Part shown: positions 1,397 to 50,238 of the stretch, piece after piece
How the letters are laid out: each line of letters begins with the position of its first letter
Numbering within the stretch: the first letter of the stretch is position 1
Source of the DNA: an uncultured virus (IMG/VR IMGVR_UViG_3300005537_000025)
Taxonomy: Duplodnaviria; Heunggongvirae; Uroviricota; Caudoviricetes
Length of the DNA stretch: 64,000 bases
Virus record (IMG/VR): IMGVR_UViG_3300005537_000025
Strand: one strand, 5' to 3'
The notes under the pieces: model-generated
The model's database searches: none
What the model was told of the DNA's origin: nothing
Seen by the model: the letters and a program-made list of their open reading frames with translations, nothing else
Made by a program: the position numbers and the translations under genes

Positions 1397-1594
1397 CTAC
1401 CGCGGCAGGACCCCCGCGTCCCTGAGCTCCTCGCGCACCACCCTGCGGAGCATCGCCTCAAGCGTCTCCCGGCTGTCCTGCTCCGCGACGCCGACGCCAA
1501 GCTCGATAGCCCTCGCGGGCTTCAGGCCGAGAACGGCCATCCTGGCCTTCAGTTCGGGAGACAGGTGCACGCTCGTCTTGCTCGGGTCAGTCAT
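1397..1594 (-). CDS. Small ribbon-helix-helix/CopG-like DNA-binding protein, probably leaderless
   Basis: MTDPSKTSVHLSPELKARM (alternating beta strand then helix); the ATG lies 6 nt after a -10 box. Confidence 0.6.
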   Translation of the reverse strand: MTDPSKTSVHLSPELKARMAVLGLKPARAIELGVGVAEQDSRETLEAMLRRVVREELRDAGVLPR

Positions 1595-1600
1595 GAGCAC

Positions 1601-1629
1601 ATGATACCGCAATGGCGGTATACCGTCCA
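1601..1629 (-). promoter_or_regulatory. Leftward sigma70-type promoter with palindromic operator CGGTATACCG (1616-1625)
   Basis: Minus strand reads TGGACG-17 nt-TATCAT-6 nt-ATG(1594). Confidence 0.7.
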
Positions 1630-1823
1630 GGCGGCCTTGAGGGGAGAGCGAGAACGCCACGCGAAATCTTCCAGGGTGGCCGGCATTCTGACCGTTTTGT
1701 CCCTTTTGCGTGATATGAGAGAGGGTGTCTGCTTCTGAGGCTGGGCTGCGCGGTGCGCGGCCGTCGATCGATCACCGTTACCGTGTCGCGACCCTACCGT
1801 TACCATTCCGTGACTCTACCGTC

Positions 1824-1852
1824 TTGACGGTATACCGTCTAGGCGGTAGTGT
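1824..1852 (+). promoter_or_regulatory. Rightward sigma70-type promoter with the same operator CGGTATACCG (1828-1837)
   Basis: TTGACG-17 nt-TAGTGT; further TACCG half-sites lie upstream at about 1775-1822. Confidence 0.75.
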
Positions 1853-1857
1853 TCTTC

Positions 1858-2925
1858 GTGTCGGACCGGTTCGCCGGACCGGCGGGCCGGCCCCCCGGCC
1901 GGTACCGGAACCACGCAGGAGCGTGATGGGTACCAGCGGGAGAGCTGGCCGGACAACTGAATCAGCTAGACGGCCGCACGGCCGGCGCGCTACCGACCGA
2001 CACGCCTGTCTGACGACTCGCCACGGTCACCAGCTCCCCTTACGTGCGGCTCATGTACGGACTTCACTGTTCGACAGAGTGGCTCCCCGATGGCTAGGGG
2101 ACACGCGCCGCGAGGCCCGCCACCGTGGACACATGCCGGGCTATGCGCGGGACGGTCCCGTGACCGGTGGGCATGACATCAGTAATAGGCGGATCGACTG
2201 ACGATCTAGGCAACCTGGCTGAGAACAGATAAGCGCGGTGCATAGCGCATGCCAGGTACGGCCGCAATCCTGCATCCCGTATTAGACTTGCGGGGATTTA
2301 ATGCAGGGGGTGCCTTAGCAGGACAGCGCTGGCCGGGTAATTCCCGCTGGCGTGGCAGCAAGACCTCTGGCCAGTCCTGTTTCGGTGGCTTGCACGAACA
2401 TCCTGCCCTTGTGCGCGTGGATTACCACGGTGGGCATGGAAGCGACGTAGACCAGTAGCACGTCTGGTTGTGCCATTCTTCAATAACACGCCCCGGAGTC
2501 TGTCCGGGGGCCAGTGCCGCAAAGAGGGTTGACGTGTCCCCTTCTCAGGTGCTGGCGGCGCGAACTAAGACAATGGAATCCCTATCGGGTGACCCAGTGC
2601 CGGCGAGATCAGCCACGCCGGCGGGACCGCACGGGACCGCGCCAGAAAAACATCAGAAGGGATGGCGTGAGGTGAGCTCTTGCGCGTATGCGACATCCTG
2701 GCCGGCCACTGAACGCGTAGCGGAACGTGGCTGGTGAACCTTTGCTCAGATTACTTCTTCGGATGGTGCCGCGCGGTGGGCTCGTGTTAGCGAGCTGGCC
2801 GCGCGCAGTGCTGTCCAGCCGCCGTTCTCACTAGCACCGCGACCTGGTCGCGGGAGGCAACGGGTGACAGCCCTCAGAAGGCGACGGCGGCACGCATGGA
2901 AGTACTTGACCCTGATGCGAGCGAG
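1858..2925 (+). ncRNA. Candidate large structured non-coding RNA or very long structured leader (~1.07 kb)
   Basis: Begins at the expected TSS and has no convincing ORF. Perfect long-range complements at 1857-1864/1997-2004, 2096-2105/2533-2542, 2120-2128/2425-2433, 2153-2162/2630-2639 and 2818-2825/2884-2891, plus many local hairpins. Confidence 0.55.
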
Positions 2926-2936
2926 AGGAGACTGCG

Positions 2937-3359
2937 ATGCCCTATCAGCGACGGCGCCGGCAAGCTATAACGCCCGGGCTGGTGTACAGGCCGAACCGTC
3001 GCCCGGACGGCTGCCGGTGGTGTCACGTTGAGGTTCCAGCCTACGGCGGCCTGCTGTACCGCGAGGAGTCAGGCGGGTGGTCGGTGACGCACACCGACGC
3101 CGAATGGGCCGGGTCGCCCGTGTCCGGCCTGTATGTGGGCGGATGCCCGGACTCGACGGACCAGAGGAACCGCGAGGGCGGTTTCGGCGGCCCTGGCGGT
3201 CCCGGTTCGGAGCATGACCGGATCGCGTCGCGGGCAGCGCTCGCGGCGGCCCGGGCGGAGCATGAGGGGCGCCGCTATGCGTACACGTCGTCTGGTGCCC
3301 GGATGACCGAGCGGCACGGCCGGTGCGAGGACGCGCCGTGCTGCGGATGCTGCGACTAG
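2937..3359 (+). CDS. Hypothetical phage protein with CxxC and a C-terminal CEDAPCCGCC metal-binding cluster
   Basis: GAGAGGAG RBS; Cys-rich motifs. Confidence 0.7.
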   Translation: MPYQRRRRQAITPGLVYRPNRRPDGCRWCHVEVPAYGGLLYREESGGWSVTHTDAEWAGSPVSGLYVGGCPDSTDQRNREGGFGGPGGPGSEHDRIASRAALAAARAEHEGRRYAYTSSGARMTERHGRCEDAPCCGCCD

Positions 3360-3374
3360 AGAGGAGACAGTCCC

Positions 3375-5082
3375 GTGGCTGCACGAGTGTGCGTCATCAG
3401 CAAGCCGGTACCGGACCTGTCGCCGGGTGACTGCGTCGTTGTGAACGGGCAGGCGCTGTACCTGGAGGAGCGGACCGGCCGGAACGCCGGCTATGACGAG
3501 TGGCGGTTTACCCGCTACTGGGATTCCGGGCAGGTCGCAGCGCGGGGCCGGATGTCCTTCCGGCACGACAGCAGTACACCGGTTGTGGCCTTCACGACCG
3601 ACGGCAGGGTGGTAGTGCCGTGACCGCCGATGCAGCCGTTATCGCTGCCGCCGACGCGGCGTGGGTGAAGGCAGGCGGCAAGCTGCGTGAGGCTTTCCGC
3701 GCGGGGGACGCGTTCAGTGCCAGCACGTGCCCGGACACCGGGATGACCGGGGAGGCGTGCACGTGCGGCGAGTGCCCGGACACGTGGGAATTCCTCGCGC
3801 GGAAGACCCGTGAGGCGATCCGTCTCCAGCGGATAGCGGCGCAGGATCCGGACGCGCCTCAGCGCGGGTGGCAGCAGTGAACGGCACAGGCACCATGAGC
3901 GCGGGGCAGCTGGCCGCGCTTGATCAGGCGGTAGCGGCCTACCGTGAGGCGGCCGGCAGGTTCGCGCGGCGCGAAGACCGGCCGGGGGACCTGGCCGCCG
4001 CCGAGGCCGCGCTCCGCGTGGCTGGCCGCGACGTGAATACGGGCCTCATCACCCTGCCAGTCGCTGCCGTGCACTTCACCGACGAGCGAGCCGACGGCGC
4101 CCGGATGCGCGCAGTGAACGGCAGCATCCTGGGCGGCCAGACGTGGATCTGCTGGGTCGGCCGCTGCTTCCGGCACGGGATCGAGACGCAGACGTACGAC
4201 GCTTACGACCTGATCCAGGTCAGAGGCTAGAAACGCGGGGCAGGACCGCTCATGCGGCGGCGCGGTCCTGCCTTGCCCTGGCGTCCCGCATCGTGCGGGA
4301 GGTGAGGGTGAGGAGGTAACCCCTGATGTTCAGTATCGCTGCTGATTTCGTGCCGGGCATGCGTGTCCGGACGAGCCCGGCCACGTCGCTGTGGGTGGCC
4401 GGCTACCGGGAGGCCACCGTGGTGACGGTGGGTGCCCGGGTCGGTATCCGTCTCAGTGACGGCACCGTGACGAGCCTGCCGGCCAGGTTCCTTGAGCCTG
4501 CCGGCGCCTGGTGACCGTCATGGACACCAGCAGCGGCATCCCGGCCGCTACCCCCATGGCGTGCACGTGCGAGCGGGTGCATGACGCTGTCATCAACGGC
4601 GCCCCCGCGAAGGTCCGGGACTGCCGGGAGTGCGGCGCGGTCACGAGATGGCTGCGGGACCTCGCCATCACGTTCAACCGTGACCTCGGCGAATCGTGGA
4701 ACGGCGGCGACGTCGTCCAGTACCTGTGCGAGCAGATGACCGCCCGCGGCATCGACCCGGACACTACCGGGGAGACGGAGGCATCGCCATGACCGCTACC
4801 GCCGCTGTAGCCCGCGGCGCCGGAATGCTCGACCAGCTCTGCCCCGGCTGGCCAGACCGCCTGGACCTTGACCGCCTGGACCTGGGCGACACGGCCCGCT
4901 GCCTGCTCGGGCAGCTGTACGGCAGCTACGACCTGGCGCTCGGCGTGCTCCGCATAAACGACGTGACAGCGGCCGACTACGGGTTTCAGGTGACCACGCG
5001 GTGGCGCACCGGCGGGCAGTTCGCTGCGCTGACCGCAGCATGGCGGGACCTGATCACGAGCCGGCGGCCGGTCACGCCGTGA
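3375..5082 (+). other. Run of small coupled hypothetical phage genes (3375-3623, 3620-3880, 3877-4230, 4326-4514, 4511-4792, 4789-5082)
   Basis: GTGA/ATGA start-stop overlaps, RBSs and GC3-biased codons. Confidence 0.65.
4239..4272 (+). terminator. Intercistronic hairpin GGCAGGACCGC...GCGGTCCTGCC
   Basis: 11-bp inverted repeat just after the stop at 4230. Confidence 0.4.
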
Positions 5083-5177
5083 GCTGGTCCTGACTGGCAC
5101 GCCGGCGCGCGAACGGGCCTGGCTCGTGCGCGTGGCGCGCCCGTCAAGGGGCGGTCACGATCCGGAAGGAGACAGCT

Positions 5178-6275
5178 ATGTCTAGGGAAACCATGGAGTG
5201 GCTGAACAGCAACGTTCTCGTCGGGTTCACGGACAAGCGGGGCAGCGCCTGGCATTACCGGGCCGACCTGCAGGGCGGCGAGCCCAACCACTATCCCGGC
5301 GCGGTCCCGGTCGGCGACGTCCGGCGCCGCCTGTTCGGGTGGGACGCCGAGTCGTGGGAAGTGTACGTGCGCCGGCCCGGCGACGTCACCCTGGACATCG
5401 GGGAGCTGATTGCCCAGCCGACCGCCGAGGAGGCGAAGGCGTACGTGCTCCGGTCGCTGGGCCTGAAGCACGAAGAGCACCGGCAGGCCATCGCGCGGTC
5501 CGACACGGGCCACGTGATGGGCCTGTTCACCGACGGGTACGAGAAGCACCCGTACGACCGGTGGCTGCTCACCACAGTCGCCAGCATCCTGGACGACGAC
5601 CTGCAGATCGGGTCCGCCGGGCTGCTCCGCGACGGCGCGATCGCCTGGGTGTCCGTTGAGATGCCCGAGAACGTGAAGCTCCCCGAAGGGGTCGAGTTCC
5701 GCCCCTACCTGCTAGCGACCACCTCGTTCGACGGGTCGCTGTCGACGACGTTCGGCCGGAAGGTCACCAACGTCGTGTGCGACAACACCCACGGAATCGC
5801 CATGGGTGAGCGCGGCCAGCAGCTGAAGATCCGGCACTCCCGGTACAGCCACCTGAAGCTGACCGAGGCCAGGCAGGCTCTCAGCGTCATCCACGAGATC
5901 ACGGACGACTTCGCCGCTGAAGTCGCGCAGCTGTGCGCCACCGGCGTGTCCCGAACCGAGTGGTCGAGGTTCCTCGACGCGCACGTGCCCGTCCCGGCGC
6001 AGCCCGGCCGGTCCCGGACCATGGCGGAGAGCAAGCGCGGCGACCTGCACCGCCTGTACACCTACGACCAGAGGGTCGCGCCGTGGAACGGCACCGCGTG
6101 GGGAGTCGTGCAGGCCGTCAACACCTACGCCCACCACATGGGCACCGTCCGGGGCGCCGTCCGTGCCGAGCGGAACATGCTCAACGCCGTCCAGGGACGG
6201 ACCGACGCCCTCGACGGCGCGACGCTCGCCACCCTCGGCACCGTCCTCGGGCGCCCGCTGGAACTCGCGGCATGA
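5178..6275 (+). CDS. DUF932 family phage/plasmid protein
   Basis: AWHY; SAGLLRDGAIAWVSVEMP; PYLLATTSFDGS; VVCDNT; KIRHS; GTAWGVVQAVNTY..H motifs. Confidence 0.85.
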   Translation: MSRETMEWLNSNVLVGFTDKRGSAWHYRADLQGGEPNHYPGAVPVGDVRRRLFGWDAESWEVYVRRPGDVTLDIGELIAQPTAEEAKAYVLRSLGLKHEEHRQAIARSDTGHVMGLFTDGYEKHPYDRWLLTTVASILDDDLQIGSAGLLRDGAIAWVSVEMPENVKLPEGVEFRPYLLATTSFDGSLSTTFGRKVTNVVCDNTHGIAMGERGQQLKIRHSRYSHLKLTEARQALSVIHEITDDFAAEVAQLCATGVSRTEWSRFLDAHVPVPAQPGRSRTMAESKRGDLHRLYTYDQRVAPWNGTAWGVVQAVNTYAHHMGTVRGAVRAERNMLNAVQGRTDALDGATLATLGTVLGRPLELAA

Positions 6276-7598
6276 CCACCCGCGAGCACGCCGAGGAGAA
6301 GATGCGGGCACTGCTCAGCCAGCGTCCGCTGCGGATGCTGGCTGACGGGCTCGCGCTGATGGACCGCAAGAAGAAGCTCGATGACGCTGAGCGGTTCGCC
6401 CGGCGTGTCCTGATCGATGTCATCTGCGAGCGGTCGCCGGCGGCTGAGGCCGCGTTCCAGGCGTGGGCCGAAAGCGACGACAACGACATCAGGCATGCGT
6501 CAGCGGCGATCATCGCCGCGGCAAGGAGGACATGATGGGCGAGTACGCGCTGTACCGCCGGCGCCGGATCAAGATCGGCACCTGCGAGGACCTGCTGTAC
6601 CTGCGGGACCACCGGTTCAGCGCTCAGTCCGACAGGAGAGCCGCAAGCGGGCAGGAGGCGTGACGGTGACACTCAAGGGCACACCGAAGCCGGCCGTCAC
6701 TTACGACGGCACGACGTATAAGGTCCGCAGTCACAAGACGGACATCCCGGACCTTGAGTCGATGGAGCGCATCGGCGCGCTGGTCTGGATCAACCAGAAC
6801 ACTTACAGGCGCGGTGCCGGCACCCGCACCGTACCGAACCTGCTGGCCGGGCTGGGCGATGCGATCCGGCTGGAGGTGCGCTGACGTGATGGCCATGTGG
6901 GCCGCACCGGACGAGCATGATGACCCTGCTGGGAACGAGGAGGACTTGACATGACTGTGGCCGAACTGATCGAGGCACTGAAGGACGAGCCGCAGGACTG
7001 GCGGGTAGCCGTCGAGCCGGTATACCCGAACGCCTGCGGCCTCGCAGCCGGGGACCAGGTCCCGGGCCGGATCACCGGGCTGGGGCACTCGAAGCGGGAC
7101 CGGCACCCGGACGGCGGCCTGTACGACGCCGAGGGCAAGCTGGCGCCTGGCGGGACCGTGAGCCTGAGCGTCTTTACGCCGTGGGAGGGCTGATGGCGAT
7201 CCGGCGGACCCGCGGCCAGGATGTCCGGGCCGGAGACGACCTGTGGTTCCTCGGCGTCCCGCACCGCATCACCCGGATAGAGCCCTACAAGGGCGTTAAC
7301 GCCCCGCTGTGGGACGGCCCCGCCAGGGTCGCGTACTCGGACGGCCCTGGCGGCATGTACCGGGCCGCCTGGGCGATCACCCTCGACCCGGACGGCCAGT
7401 ACGACATCTCCCGGGCCGATGATCGCCGTGACCCGGATCCTCACCGCTGACGACGCCGTCTGCGCATCGGCCATACTCGCCGAGGTGAGCGCCGGCCACG
7501 AGGAGGCAGCAGAACGGCTGGCGGTCACGTGCGGGCTCGACGATCTCAGCACCGAGGAGCTGGAGGTGCTGTGCGACCAGGAAGGAGTGGAGCGGTGA
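6272..7598 (+). other. Small hypothetical phage genes (6272-6535, short 6532-6663, 6660-6884, 6951-7193, 7193-7450 and a further short ORF to ~7598)
   Basis: Coupled ORFs with RBSs. Confidence 0.55.
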
Positions 7599-7727
7599 CC
7601 GATTTCTATCCTGAGTTGGCCGCACGAGCGCGGGTGCCCGTGCTGGGACTGCCGGCAGTCACGCCAGGAGGCAGATGAGGAGCAGGTACCCGCGCCCCCG
7701 CCCGGGCAGAGACCCGGGCCTGACTCC

Positions 7728-7790
7728 GTATAACCACCCTGTATAACCACCGGTTGACACCGTATAACCACCGCTCTAGCGTGGTTATAC
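7728..7790 (+). promoter_or_regulatory. Promoter TTGACA-17-TAGCGT (7754-7782) embedded in four GTATAACCAC boxes
   Basis: Direct copies at 7728, 7741 and 7762; inverted copy GTGGTTATAC at 7781-7790. Confidence 0.8.
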
Positions 7791-7914
7791 AGAAAGAGCA
7801 CGGCAAGGCGGCATCCGGACGGAGCCGCCGCAAGCGCAGCGGGCCTAGAGGAACTGCCCTGGCATCCACACGAGGAATGGCGGCGATGAGCAAGTCCGGA
7901 AACAGGCGCTGACG

Positions 7915-8232
7915 ATGCCCAGCGGAATCCACAAGACCACGCAGACAGCATTCCGCATCCCGGCTGACCTCATGGCATCCCTGAAGGCCGCCGCCGGCGA
8001 GCGGAACGTGACCGTGACCGCCTACGTCGTCAGCGCCATCGAGGAGAAGCTCGCCATGGACGCCCCGCGTATAACCACCGGTATAACCACCCGTATAACC
8101 ACCAGCGCGGGCCCGGCTGAGCCTGTATCACCACCACAGCCAGCCGCCAGGACCCCCGCGCCAGTCACCGCCGCCCACCGGGCCGGCTGCAAATGCGGCG
8201 TATGCCACCCGGAAACAGGAGGCAAGAAATGA
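7915..8232 (+). CDS. Arc/CopG-like ribbon-helix-helix protein with a C-terminal HxxxCxCxxC tail
   Basis: TTQTAFRIPADLMASLKAAAGERNVTVTAYVVSAIEEKL. Confidence 0.75.
   Translation: MPSGIHKTTQTAFRIPADLMASLKAAAGERNVTVTAYVVSAIEEKLAMDAPRITTGITTRITTSAGPAEPVSPPQPAARTPAPVTAAHRAGCKCGVCHPETGGKK
8069..8134 (+). repeat. Intragenic GTATAACCAC repeats (8069, 8081, 8093; variant at 8125)
   Basis: Same 10-mer as at the upstream promoter; encodes RITTGITTRITT. Confidence 0.9.
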
Positions 8233-8414
8233 GCGACGCCACCGTCATCCTCGGCGAGCCGGAGGTAGCACGCCTCTACGCCGAGCTGGAACGGCTCCGC
8301 GAAGTCAGGGACACCGCACAGGACCAGATCGACGCAATCGGCCGGGTGCTCGCCGCGTCCGGTGAGGCAAGGCTGCGGGCACGCCGGGACACCGCGGACG
8401 CCGGGGACCGGTAA
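8229..8414 (+). CDS. Small hypothetical coiled-coil protein
   Basis: ATGA overlap with the RHH gene; AGGAGG RBS. Confidence 0.55.
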   Translation: MSDATVILGEPEVARLYAELERLREVRDTAQDQIDAIGRVLAASGEARLRARRDTADAGDR

Positions 8415-8762: not shown

Positions 8763-9404
8763 TTACGGTTCGACGGTGGCGGTGATGGCTTTCGGGTTGT
8801 CGTGGGTGGCTGCTGTGCGTTCGGCTTCTTCGGTTTCGCGGCGGACCATCTCGATGGCTGCGGCGAGGTCCTGGGGGTTGGCGCTGGCGATGAATGCCCT
8901 GATTTCCTCGGGTCCGGTGTGTCCGGTGAGGGTGATGGCGCGGCGGGGGGCGTCGGTGCCGCGGATGCGGGCTATGCGCTCGTTCACGCGGACGAGGAGG
9001 GTTCCGGCTGCGGTGAGGGCCTGGGCGTCGGGGACGGGGTTGCCGTTGCCGTCGAGGACGATGCGGCCGAGGCGGTCGATGGCGGGGAGGGGGTTGTTGA
9101 GCTGGTCCCAGATGCGGCGGCGGAGTTCGGTGAGCTCGGCGAGCTGCTGGCGGCGGATTTCCTCGCTGGTGCCGTCGAGTCGTGCGGCTTCCTGGCGGAT
9201 TTTCTGGACGGCACGCCAGGTGTCGCCGCGGTCGCTGTAGCCGAGTTCTTTCGCGGCCTGCTCGTATGTCCAGCCCTGGGTGACGAGTTCGGCGGCGCGG
9301 CGGTCCCGGTCGATGGTCTGGATGGCGCGGATGTAGCGGCCGTGGCCGTTGCGGGGCGGGGTGTTGCCGGCCCGGGCGGGGCTGCCGGCGGCGGGGGTGG
9401 TCAT
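8763..9404 (-). CDS. HTH protein, probable terminase small subunit
   Basis: RDRRAAELVTQGWTYEQAAKELGYSDRGDTWRAVQ...LVRVNERIARIRGTDAP, a pattern I recognise from actinophage genes preceding TerL; same strand as TerL. Confidence 0.6.
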   Translation of the reverse strand: MTTPAAGSPARAGNTPPRNGHGRYIRAIQTIDRDRRAAELVTQGWTYEQAAKELGYSDRGDTWRAVQKIRQEAARLDGTSEEIRRQQLAELTELRRRIWDQLNNPLPAIDRLGRIVLDGNGNPVPDAQALTAAGTLLVRVNERIARIRGTDAPRRAITLTGHTGPEEIRAFIASANPQDLAAAIEMVRRETEEAERTAATHDNPKAITATVEP

Positions 9405-49059: not shown

Positions 49060-50238
49060 CTAGTGCCGGGGGATTCCTGGCTCAGACCGCATTCCGCCCG
49101 CTACCCCTGAAGGGAGGCAAGGGAGTTGTCTTACGTCGTCAGCACCAGCCAGGATGCGTTCACCCTGGGCGAGAATCACTCTCGCGGCGTTCGCGTCACG
49201 GCCCGCGATACATCCGCAGGCCGTACACACGAAGACCCGTTCGGCGAGCGTGAGGCGTTCCTTGGCTCTCGTACCGCACTCAGCGCACGTCATCGTCGTG
49301 TAGGCGGGCGGAACCAGCACCACCTTCCGGGCCGCCCGCTTGCCATACTCGATCAGCGCCCGCTTCGCGGTACCTACCGCGGCATCAGCGGACTTACGCG
49401 CCATCGTGGACTTAGCCAGGAACAGCGGCCTGAAGTCCTCAACGGCTATTACCTGGTGATGGTCCACTATCCGCCGTGCCCACACGCGGGCCGCGTGGGT
49501 GTTCTGCCGTGCGGCTTTCTTGTGGAGCTCCGCTGCTTCCCGCCTGGCACAGCGGTACCCGTTCGACTGGGGCTGGCCGCGTTCCCTGCGGCGCCTGCTC
49601 ATCTTCCGCTGCGCCCTCGCCAGTTCAGCCGCGCAGCGTTTCCTGTGCCCACCGTACGGCAGATCGTAAGCCGGGTCCGTGGCCGTGGCCGTGACCTTGA
49701 TACCCCAGTCGATGCCGATCTTCCCGCTGGCTTCCGGCGCAGGCTCAGCCTCGCGGGTGACGACGAACGACGCGTACCAGTGGCCCAGCGAATCCTGGTA
49801 GACGCGGACGCTCGACGGGGCAGACGGCAGGTCGCGGGACCACACCACGGGTACCGATACGCCCTTGGGCAGGCACAGGCGGCCATCGCGGACAGAGAAC
49901 CCGCGCACGGTGTACTCAAGCGACGGCAGGGTGTCCTTGCGCCGCTTGATCACCGGCGTGCGCCGTCCCTTGACCTTGAACGAGTGGTCCAGGGCCAGCA
50001 TGTATGTCCGCAGCGTCTGCTGCTGCGCGACCTGCGAACCTTCGCGGAGCCACTCGTTTGCCGCTCGTGCCGCGGTCAGCAACTTGGACAGCTTGCAGAA
50101 CGTCGGCTTGCGCCCGGTCCTGCGCTGGTTGACGGCCTCGTTCCACAGCCAGCGGCACCGGCCCCACTCGTCAAGCAGCGCGCGTTCCGCCTGCGTACCA
50201 GGGCGCAGGCGGTAGGTGTAGCGCACCGTCTCGAACAC
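49060..50238 (-). CDS. tnpB: TnpB RNA-guided endonuclease
   Basis: YTYRLRP; RuvC motifs GIDWG, IAVEDF, RDANAA; Zn finger CAECG/CTACG. Confidence 0.93.
   Translation of the reverse strand: MFETVRYTYRLRPGTQAERALLDEWGRCRWLWNEAVNQRRTGRKPTFCKLSKLLTAARAANEWLREGSQVAQQQTLRTYMLALDHSFKVKGRRTPVIKRRKDTLPSLEYTVRGFSVRDGRLCLPKGVSVPVVWSRDLPSAPSSVRVYQDSLGHWYASFVVTREAEPAPEASGKIGIDWGIKVTATATDPAYDLPYGGHRKRCAAELARAQRKMSRRRRERGQPQSNGYRCARREAAELHKKAARQNTHAARVWARRIVDHHQVIAVEDFRPLFLAKSTMARKSADAAVGTAKRALIEYGKRAARKVVLVPPAYTTMTCAECGTRAKERLTLAERVFVCTACGCIAGRDANAARVILAQGERILAGADDVRQLPCLPSGVAGGMRSEPGIPRH

Follow-up and report, generated by a model that had tools for sequence, protein, structure and literature searches.

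The stretch at positions 1858 to 2925 of the window, by which we mean the whole 64,000-nucleotide piece of viral DNA that was analysed, is probably a real, uncatalogued large phage RNA, a conclusion resting on two alleles. The original prediction had proposed either a large phage RNA or a giant leader. The results support a non-coding RNA that is large and structured and has a promoter overlain by operators, but the perfect complements and the pseudoknot brought forward as evidence were no more than expected by chance or absent from the predicted ensemble.

The virus is represented by a single record of 135,301 bp with an end overlap and ~70% GC. Its genes include a terminase, a portal, an integrase fragment match and several transposase and TnpB-like genes, and it is a temperate actinophage of soil with a filamentous-bacterial host. 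We place this host probably in the Streptosporangiales, because the DUF932 protein of the phage is 64% identical to a protein of an Actinomadura genome and many more matches were found in the Streptosporangiales. By terminase the closest isolated phages were Actinoplanes phiAsp2 (53.5%) and Streptomyces TurkishDelight (49.8%). The RNA stretch sits in a rightward block of small genes between the presumed small- and large-terminase genes (Table 1). This early block, at 1397-8414, splits the two, and in four relatives a small-terminase homologue was located ~0.3-2.9 kb before the large terminase, with the early leader, where seen, upstream of both. Three TnpB/Cas12f-like genes, two DDE transposases and a glycosyl-/methyltransferase cluster beside the lysis genes were also observed in the genome (window 49060-50238; L095, L097, L098). 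The 64-kb window contained no tRNA gene, and the only one in the genome, a tRNA-Ser, was >70 kb away along the contig.

The predicted promoter TTGACG-17-TAGTGT is present in front of the stretch, as one of only 3 matches to the pattern TTG/TGG..-N17-19-TANNNT in the first 14 kb on both strands. It was not called in a scan for E. coli sigma-70 promoters because its -10 element has 3/6 consensus bases. Operator control had also been predicted, and in agreement with this the palindrome TACCG-N6-CGGTA was found in 3 copies in the 135-kb genome (1605, 1817 and 1833; 0.12 expected), two of them overlying this promoter at what would be repressor-binding sites. Two 22-bp direct repeats with operator half-sites were observed at 1774-1817, just upstream of the promoter. 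The notion that the RNA has a promoter of its own has to be qualified: no U-tailed terminator was detected on the plus strand between 1858 and 9000, and the RNA is therefore probably the 5' part of an early polycistronic transcript. The divergent 65-aa gene on the other side of the operators is probably leaderless. Its product looks like a ribbon-helix-helix repressor, for which the evidence is weak: feature matches of 0.82-0.91, several of them to RHH/Arc clusters, which are a lead only, and a low-confidence model (pLDDT 66) with an extended segment at 7-12 and helices at 13-22, 26-31 and 42-59, with no Pfam match over the cut-off. A 94% identical homologue of the protein is encoded on another contig (~5.5 kb; P0002/P0003), and it is only through this homologue that a third relative of the locus is known.

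Table 1. Features of the RNA locus and its surroundings in the window, and leaders at six other phage loci.
Feature	Position	Strand	Remarks
Large-terminase gene	starts at 316	-	Borders the rightward small-gene block at its other side
Repressor-like gene, 65 aa	1397-1594	-	Divergent from the RNA; ORF; likely ribbon-helix-helix plus C-terminal helix
Leftward promoter TGGACG-17-TATCAT	1601-1629	-	Serves the 65-aa repressor-like gene
Operator pair	1605-1636	.	One exact 16-bp palindrome and one degenerate; overlies the leftward promoter
Two tandem operators TACCG-N6-CGGTA	1817-1848	.	Overlie the rightward promoter from its -35 across the spacer into the first part of its -10
Rightward promoter TTGACG-17-TAGTGT	1824-1852	+	From sequence and pattern scan; start probably near G1858, from spacing
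5' domain	1858-2009	+	GC-rich hairpins; two competing closing helices, P ~0.5 each
Decamer GACAACTGAA	1952-1961	+	The genome's sole GA[ACG]AACT[GC]AA; lies 99 nt past the -10 box
Conserved 5' arm	2010-2167	+	Second allele ~89% identical, with 13 extra letters
Central domain	2168-2672	+	Helices 2342-2356/2612-2626 and 2268-2308 predicted, as are self-complementary loops near 2091, 2238 and 2532
Conserved 3' domain	2673-2901	+	Hairpin 2701-2735, long hairpin 2761-2816, junction closed by 2818-2826/2883-2891
Closing arm and ribosome-binding site	2902-2930	+	Predicted pairing with 2017-2029 or 2677-2689; either would mask the site
First early gene, 140 aa	2937-3359	+	Heads a run of small genes; C-terminal Cys-rich motif
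DUF932 gene	5178-6275	+	Pfam; in the early small-gene run
Presumed small-terminase gene	8763-9404	-	Identity from position before the terminase in four relatives
L115 leader	4570-3925	-	650 nt non-coding after promoter; folding z -4.9; no Rfam match
L101 leader	780-480	-	Early leader
L118 leader	290-1	-	Early leader, contig edge
L107 leader	17535-17205	-	Early leader
L256 leader	5600-6250		Early leader
L265 leader	4645-5070		Early leader

The absence of any phage-like open reading frame over ~1.07 kb was confirmed. Under a codon model trained on the phage's own genome, every 180-nt segment starting from 1561 to 2911 scored negative in all six frames and the flanking genes scored positive; the gene-free run around the stretch is the longest in the genome (1560 vs 840 for the next). 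Hundreds of nucleotides without coding potential are a trait of large ornate phage RNAs, which the stretch shares. The first good ribosome-binding site had been placed at ~2923-2930, and a site is found there, but an AGGAG with an ATG occurs earlier, at 1917-1928. The 91-codon frame behind it has no codon bias and is frameshifted in a second allele of the locus, the indels of which frameshift all three candidate ORFs in which they fall.

The eight complement pairs that had been quoted are exact and correctly placed, but their number does not exceed chance. Perfect helices of >=8 bp numbered 14, against 11.4 +/- 3.3 in shuffled sequences (14 was reached in 40/200), and those of >=10 bp numbered 2, against 0.7 expected (33/200 shuffles); as many helices as in the candidate stretch were found in 53 of 56 other stretches of the same length, and the majority of coding stretches exceeded it. 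Pairing of the first nucleotides, also predicted, exists between 1858-1864 and 1997-2003 with an ensemble P of 0.48. Five quoted helices (2153/2630, 2269/2301, 2771/2799, 2818/2884 and 2837/2847) reached an ensemble P of 0.88-1.0 and 2752/2899 reached 0.36, but 2096/2533 and 2120/2425 had P 0.00 in this nested ensemble, and the pseudoknot therefore stays a prediction. The structural argument from perfect complements does not stand alone, and two of the three long-range helices lie outside the nested ensemble.

Folding energies were more favourable than in shuffled sequences for the whole stretch (z -3.08; 0/20 shuffles) and for 2010-2905, in the latter case on the plus strand only (z -3.57, 0/25 shuffles; minus strand -0.88), but among 14 length-matched coding controls there were two whose margin over their own shuffles was larger than that of the candidate. 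The 5' domain had z -2.95 on the plus and -4.72 on the minus strand, and the 3' domain -2.45 and -0.45. Three self-complementary loops were predicted, against 0.95 expected (13/300 shuffles). This is a weak hint, and it would point to symmetric kissing contacts such as those of OLE and GOLLD in PMC12286853. Loop-loop matches were as frequent as expected (3 vs 3.0), and the attractive pair 2283-2288/2497-2502 was rejected, such matches being no commoner than chance. GNRA or UNCG hairpins numbered only 3 in 1079 nt. An internal two-module repeat suspected by eye (2472-2489 with 2653-2667 vs 2821-2837 with 2874-2889) was dropped, as alignment and pattern search gave no support.

A stronger kind of evidence came from natural variation. 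Public contigs over the region revealed a second lineage, with a depth of ~9 vs ~35, in the run that is the probable source sample. Its 777-nt contig aligns to the window at 2010-2167 and at 2673-2847; in between, 430 unalignable letters replace the central 505 nt, and the overall length is nearly kept (777 vs 838 nt). Judged from unitig overlaps and depth sums, the second allele would share 1446-2039 and 2818-2901 exactly and would leave the window sequence after 2901, with no contig covering the gene at 2937; the closing arm at 2902-2930 is not common to it. The identical blocks suggest recent recombination, not necessarily selection, and the apparently identical 5' domain holds no variation to score. 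The alignable arms, at ~89% identity, are better kept than the adjoining coding DNA of the same pair (32 differences in 182 nt).

We compared the listed differences between the alleles with the pair probabilities predicted for the window, taking as the null the same kinds of change placed at random in the same segment. The allele is known solely as a table of differences, and six differences near the ends of the pieces, being unlisted, were not scored. With substitutions only, the first test over both segments gave P 0.087; with indels included, P was 0.0006-0.0018. Within 2703-2817, a segment singled out after the data had been seen, 11 substitutions and 3 indels break 1.07 predicted pairs where 5.74 were expected (P 0.0002-0.0009 over four folding spans, ~0.0003). 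On the minus strand the test gave P 0.06, and on a coding control P 0.66 (19 of the 21 listed coding differences, two being outside the tested span). The 5' segment 2010-2167 alone was not significant (P 0.06-0.15). In the 3' segment the stem changes at 2703, 2709, 2732 and 2767 are G-C/G-U interconversions and the three indels are confined to loops or linkers, outside stems; the lone broken pair, at 2808, adjoins a change at 2806 that offers a replacement partner. Extensive covariation over many helices would be a further trait of large ornate phage RNAs; in this one diverged allele, change in the 3' domain preserves the structure, but no two-sided compensatory change is among the listed differences. 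We consider the evidence for a selected structure of the plus-strand RNA good in the 3' domain and modest across the whole. A near-identical 151-nt piece matching 2177-2328 was found in a lake run at a depth of 2, with 3 substitutions and 1 deletion, and those of its changes that are listed are compatible with the predicted fold.

Beyond the second allele and the lake piece, no homologue of the RNA was found in isolated phages, plasmids, viral contigs, one metagenome, whole virus records or three samples of 401 actinobacterial genomes each. In blastn searches, isolated phages gave 2 short matches only (E 0.3) and plasmids 2 short ones, the better plasmid match lying in coding DNA. Exact patterns run against viral contigs gave 3 matches with one pattern, all chance, 0 with a second, and 59 without flanking similarity with another. 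The sole match in the scan of one metagenome was the window's own record; genome contigs gave 4 chance matches and no homologue; and DNA searches of whole virus records (5 + 5 + 46) returned short chance matches or none. A single-sequence model of 2752-2904 recovered only itself in 100 loci, the next best score being 24.8 bits, and matched 0 of 41 records. Among bacterial genomes there were no matches in a set of 5 or in the 401 sampled at family level; the class-level sample gave 2/401, both chance on inspection, and the order-level sample 3/401, all on the 46-nt query stretch that had matched plasmid coding DNA. A relative that is 97% complete, with a terminase 67% identical, gave no match and contained no non-coding run >600 nt; since this relative does without it, the element, by sequence comparison, is accessory in the phage lineage. 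No account of this RNA or of such actinophage leaders surfaced in the literature accessible to the analysis; the supplementary motif tables of PMC10690425, with motifs of 151 nt or shorter, and of PMC5737381 may hold a fragment.

None of the 4227 models of Rfam 15, OLE and raiA included, matched at its gathering score in the window (best 19.4 bits vs a gathering score of 47). At E of 10 or less, five chance matches were obtained in 1500-3200, with GOLLD, ROOL and intron models not among them. A new or divergent large phage RNA had been suggested; by any test run, including the covariance search, the RNA is not a divergent GOLLD or ROOL. We keep it apart from GOLLD, ROOL, OLE, introns and RT-associated RNAs because no Rfam match, tRNA neighbour or reverse transcriptase was found. 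According to PMC12286853, many GOLLD RNAs exceed 800 nt and are phage-borne and accessory, with a conserved 3' region and more variable other parts, and in all of these respects the present RNA is similar. It differs in that GOLLD often occurs beside tRNA genes, whereas this RNA has none nearby, stands without a terminator at the head of an operator-controlled early operon, and has no covariance-model match. ROOL, in the same paper, is likewise large, phage-encoded and built with a variable internal linker between conserved parts, but the example given there has 659 nt against ~1,050 nt here, and the present RNA is neither in a tRNA island nor matched by the ROOL model.

The reading we favour, tentatively, is a self-contained accessory structured RNA of ~0.9-1.05 kb that would form the start of the early transcript, be released from it and act in trans in the manner of GOLLD and ROOL, to neither of which it belongs. 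It is favoured because the second allele retains the body of the RNA but lacks the arm that would hide the ribosome-binding site; a sequence that changes after 2901 beside an RNA that stays leans towards independence of the RNA from the downstream gene. The small divergent repressor would bind the 16-bp operators and shut both its own and the rightward promoter. Upon infection or induction the rightward promoter would fire, and synthesis of the early transcript would begin with the RNA as its 5' part. Its conserved 5' and 3' arms may then fold around the exchangeable centre, the 3' fold being the part to which the variation speaks and the long-range pairs being predicted. A host nuclease, most likely RNase III acting at the long closing stem, would free both the RNA and the first ribosome-binding site; the long stems in the RNA are predicted candidate sites for this enzyme. 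Speculatively, the stable RNA could act in trans during the early phase of infection, scaffolding host factors or serving as a decoy for them, and it might form a multimer through its self-complementary loops, structurally as GOLLD and ROOL do.

A close rival, possible although we think it somewhat less probable, is a giant cis-acting 5' leader that controls the early operon through antitermination or processivity, mRNA stabilisation, or concealment of the ribosome-binding site until processing. Consistent with this, no terminator precedes the first gene and the site at 2923-2930 is predicted to be paired, but in the second allele the site-hiding arm and the first gene differ. Six other loci (L101, L107, L115, L118, L256 and L265), from phages with related terminase or DUF932 genes, show, at the first early operon with its small genes, 300-650 nt of non-coding DNA behind a promoter or a site resembling one; L118 reaches the contig edge before any gene. 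Long non-coding early-operon leaders with RNase III processing occur in T7-like phages. The present RNA resembles them in lying directly after an early promoter, in being probably co-transcribed with small early genes and in having long intergenic hairpins downstream (4236-4275 and 5078-5160), but its length exceeds that of the complete leaders found here by a factor of 1.6-3.5, and none of the other leaders aligns with it (lenient z <=1.1 for all 7). Known cis antiterminators are, to our knowledge, far smaller, which also counts against this reading. The decamer GACAACTGAA, which has a leader-like position, was met again in the leaders of two other phages, and the stretch immediately 3' of boxA in a Streptosporangiaceae rrn leader is similar to it. 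The boxA consensus of E. coli and B. subtilis, in PMC13753749, has a U-rich core; this core is absent at 1952-1961, where GC-rich bases precede, and boxA membership was rejected. We regard the decamer as only a lead, because it lacks the boxA core and the motif was picked by eye after the leaders had been viewed.

It is improbable, in our judgement, that functional RNA is limited to the 3' domain (~230 nt), perhaps with a few local hairpins, the rest being loose spacer or a mosaic of unrelated elements. Significant preservation of structure is confined to 2703-2817, the centre is replaced wholesale, and the folding of this centre shows no strand preference (z -3.02 and -3.25). Against it, the arms that flank the swap keep their order and a similar identity at nearly constant length, and a helix of high predicted probability links 2153-2162 to 2630-2639.

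The favoured self-contained RNA can be taken further, to an uncatalogued class of ~1-kb RNAs that would be the first product of a repressor-controlled lytic promoter, with a conserved frame around a swappable interior of 430-505 nt for specificity or cargo, and would assemble as an RNA-only multimer through palindromic loops. We hold this bolder version to be doubtful; at ~1 kb such an RNA would be longer than the GOLLD example solved by cryo-EM.

An element acting at the level of DNA (a genome end, a packaging or replication signal, or a single-strand DNA structure) is very unlikely. The block lies between the presumed terminase genes and the non-coding region of relatives is near the presumed genome end, but the preservation is strand-specific and acts through G-U pairs, no iterons are present inside the stretch, and the stretch begins exactly at the promoter. 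Least credible of all is a self-splicing intron, a ribozyme, the RNA partner of a mobile enzyme (group I/II, retron/DRT/DGR template or OMEGA guide scaffold) or a relic of one: size and exchangeable interior are intron-like and three TnpB-like genes are in the genome, but these are far off with none adjoining the RNA, no Rfam family of this kind matched even at E 10, including the group II domain 5/6 core and a group I model that can miss divergent subgroups, no flanking exon was seen, and no reverse transcriptase was among 106 proteins (5 neighbours, and all but two of the 103 called genes of >=130 aa).

Very large bacterial and phage RNAs have repeatedly proved to be catalysts or RNA-only machines, and the role of GOLLD and ROOL is still open. 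An RNA of 1 kb whose interior has been exchanged in nature and which is tied to a defined operator-promoter switch would make timing and domain function directly testable, and the nearest isolate of this actinobacterial phage group stands at ~54% terminase identity; the weight of the case is limited by there being two alleles. If the RNA were a cis leader instead, it would represent an unstudied mode of early-operon control in these phages.

Some further observations were made along the early regions. The Cys-rich C-terminal motif of the 140-aa first early protein is conserved and common to at least 296 viral stretches, this being the number of relatives among 599 matched stretches in viral contigs, and the protein belongs to no Pfam family. 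The hairpins at 4236-4275 and 5078-5160, each region at ~-60 kcal/mol, precede early genes and are candidate RNase III sites or U-less terminators. Among the other leaders, those of L101 and L118 match each other locally with significance (z 9), with weaker links among the others, which suggests, from sequence, a small uncatalogued leader family distinct from the 1858-2925 RNA. The L115 leader is a candidate RNA itself, followed downstream by a further 340-nt element and repeated intergenic hairpins. Finally, a second operator-promoter unit was found at 7728-7790 and 8069-8102, where all 7 genome copies of a 10-bp repeat are located: four surround a TTGACA-17-TAGCGT promoter (7754), and three lie inside the downstream 105-aa CopG-like gene (7915-8232), in which the repeat encodes a repeated peptide.
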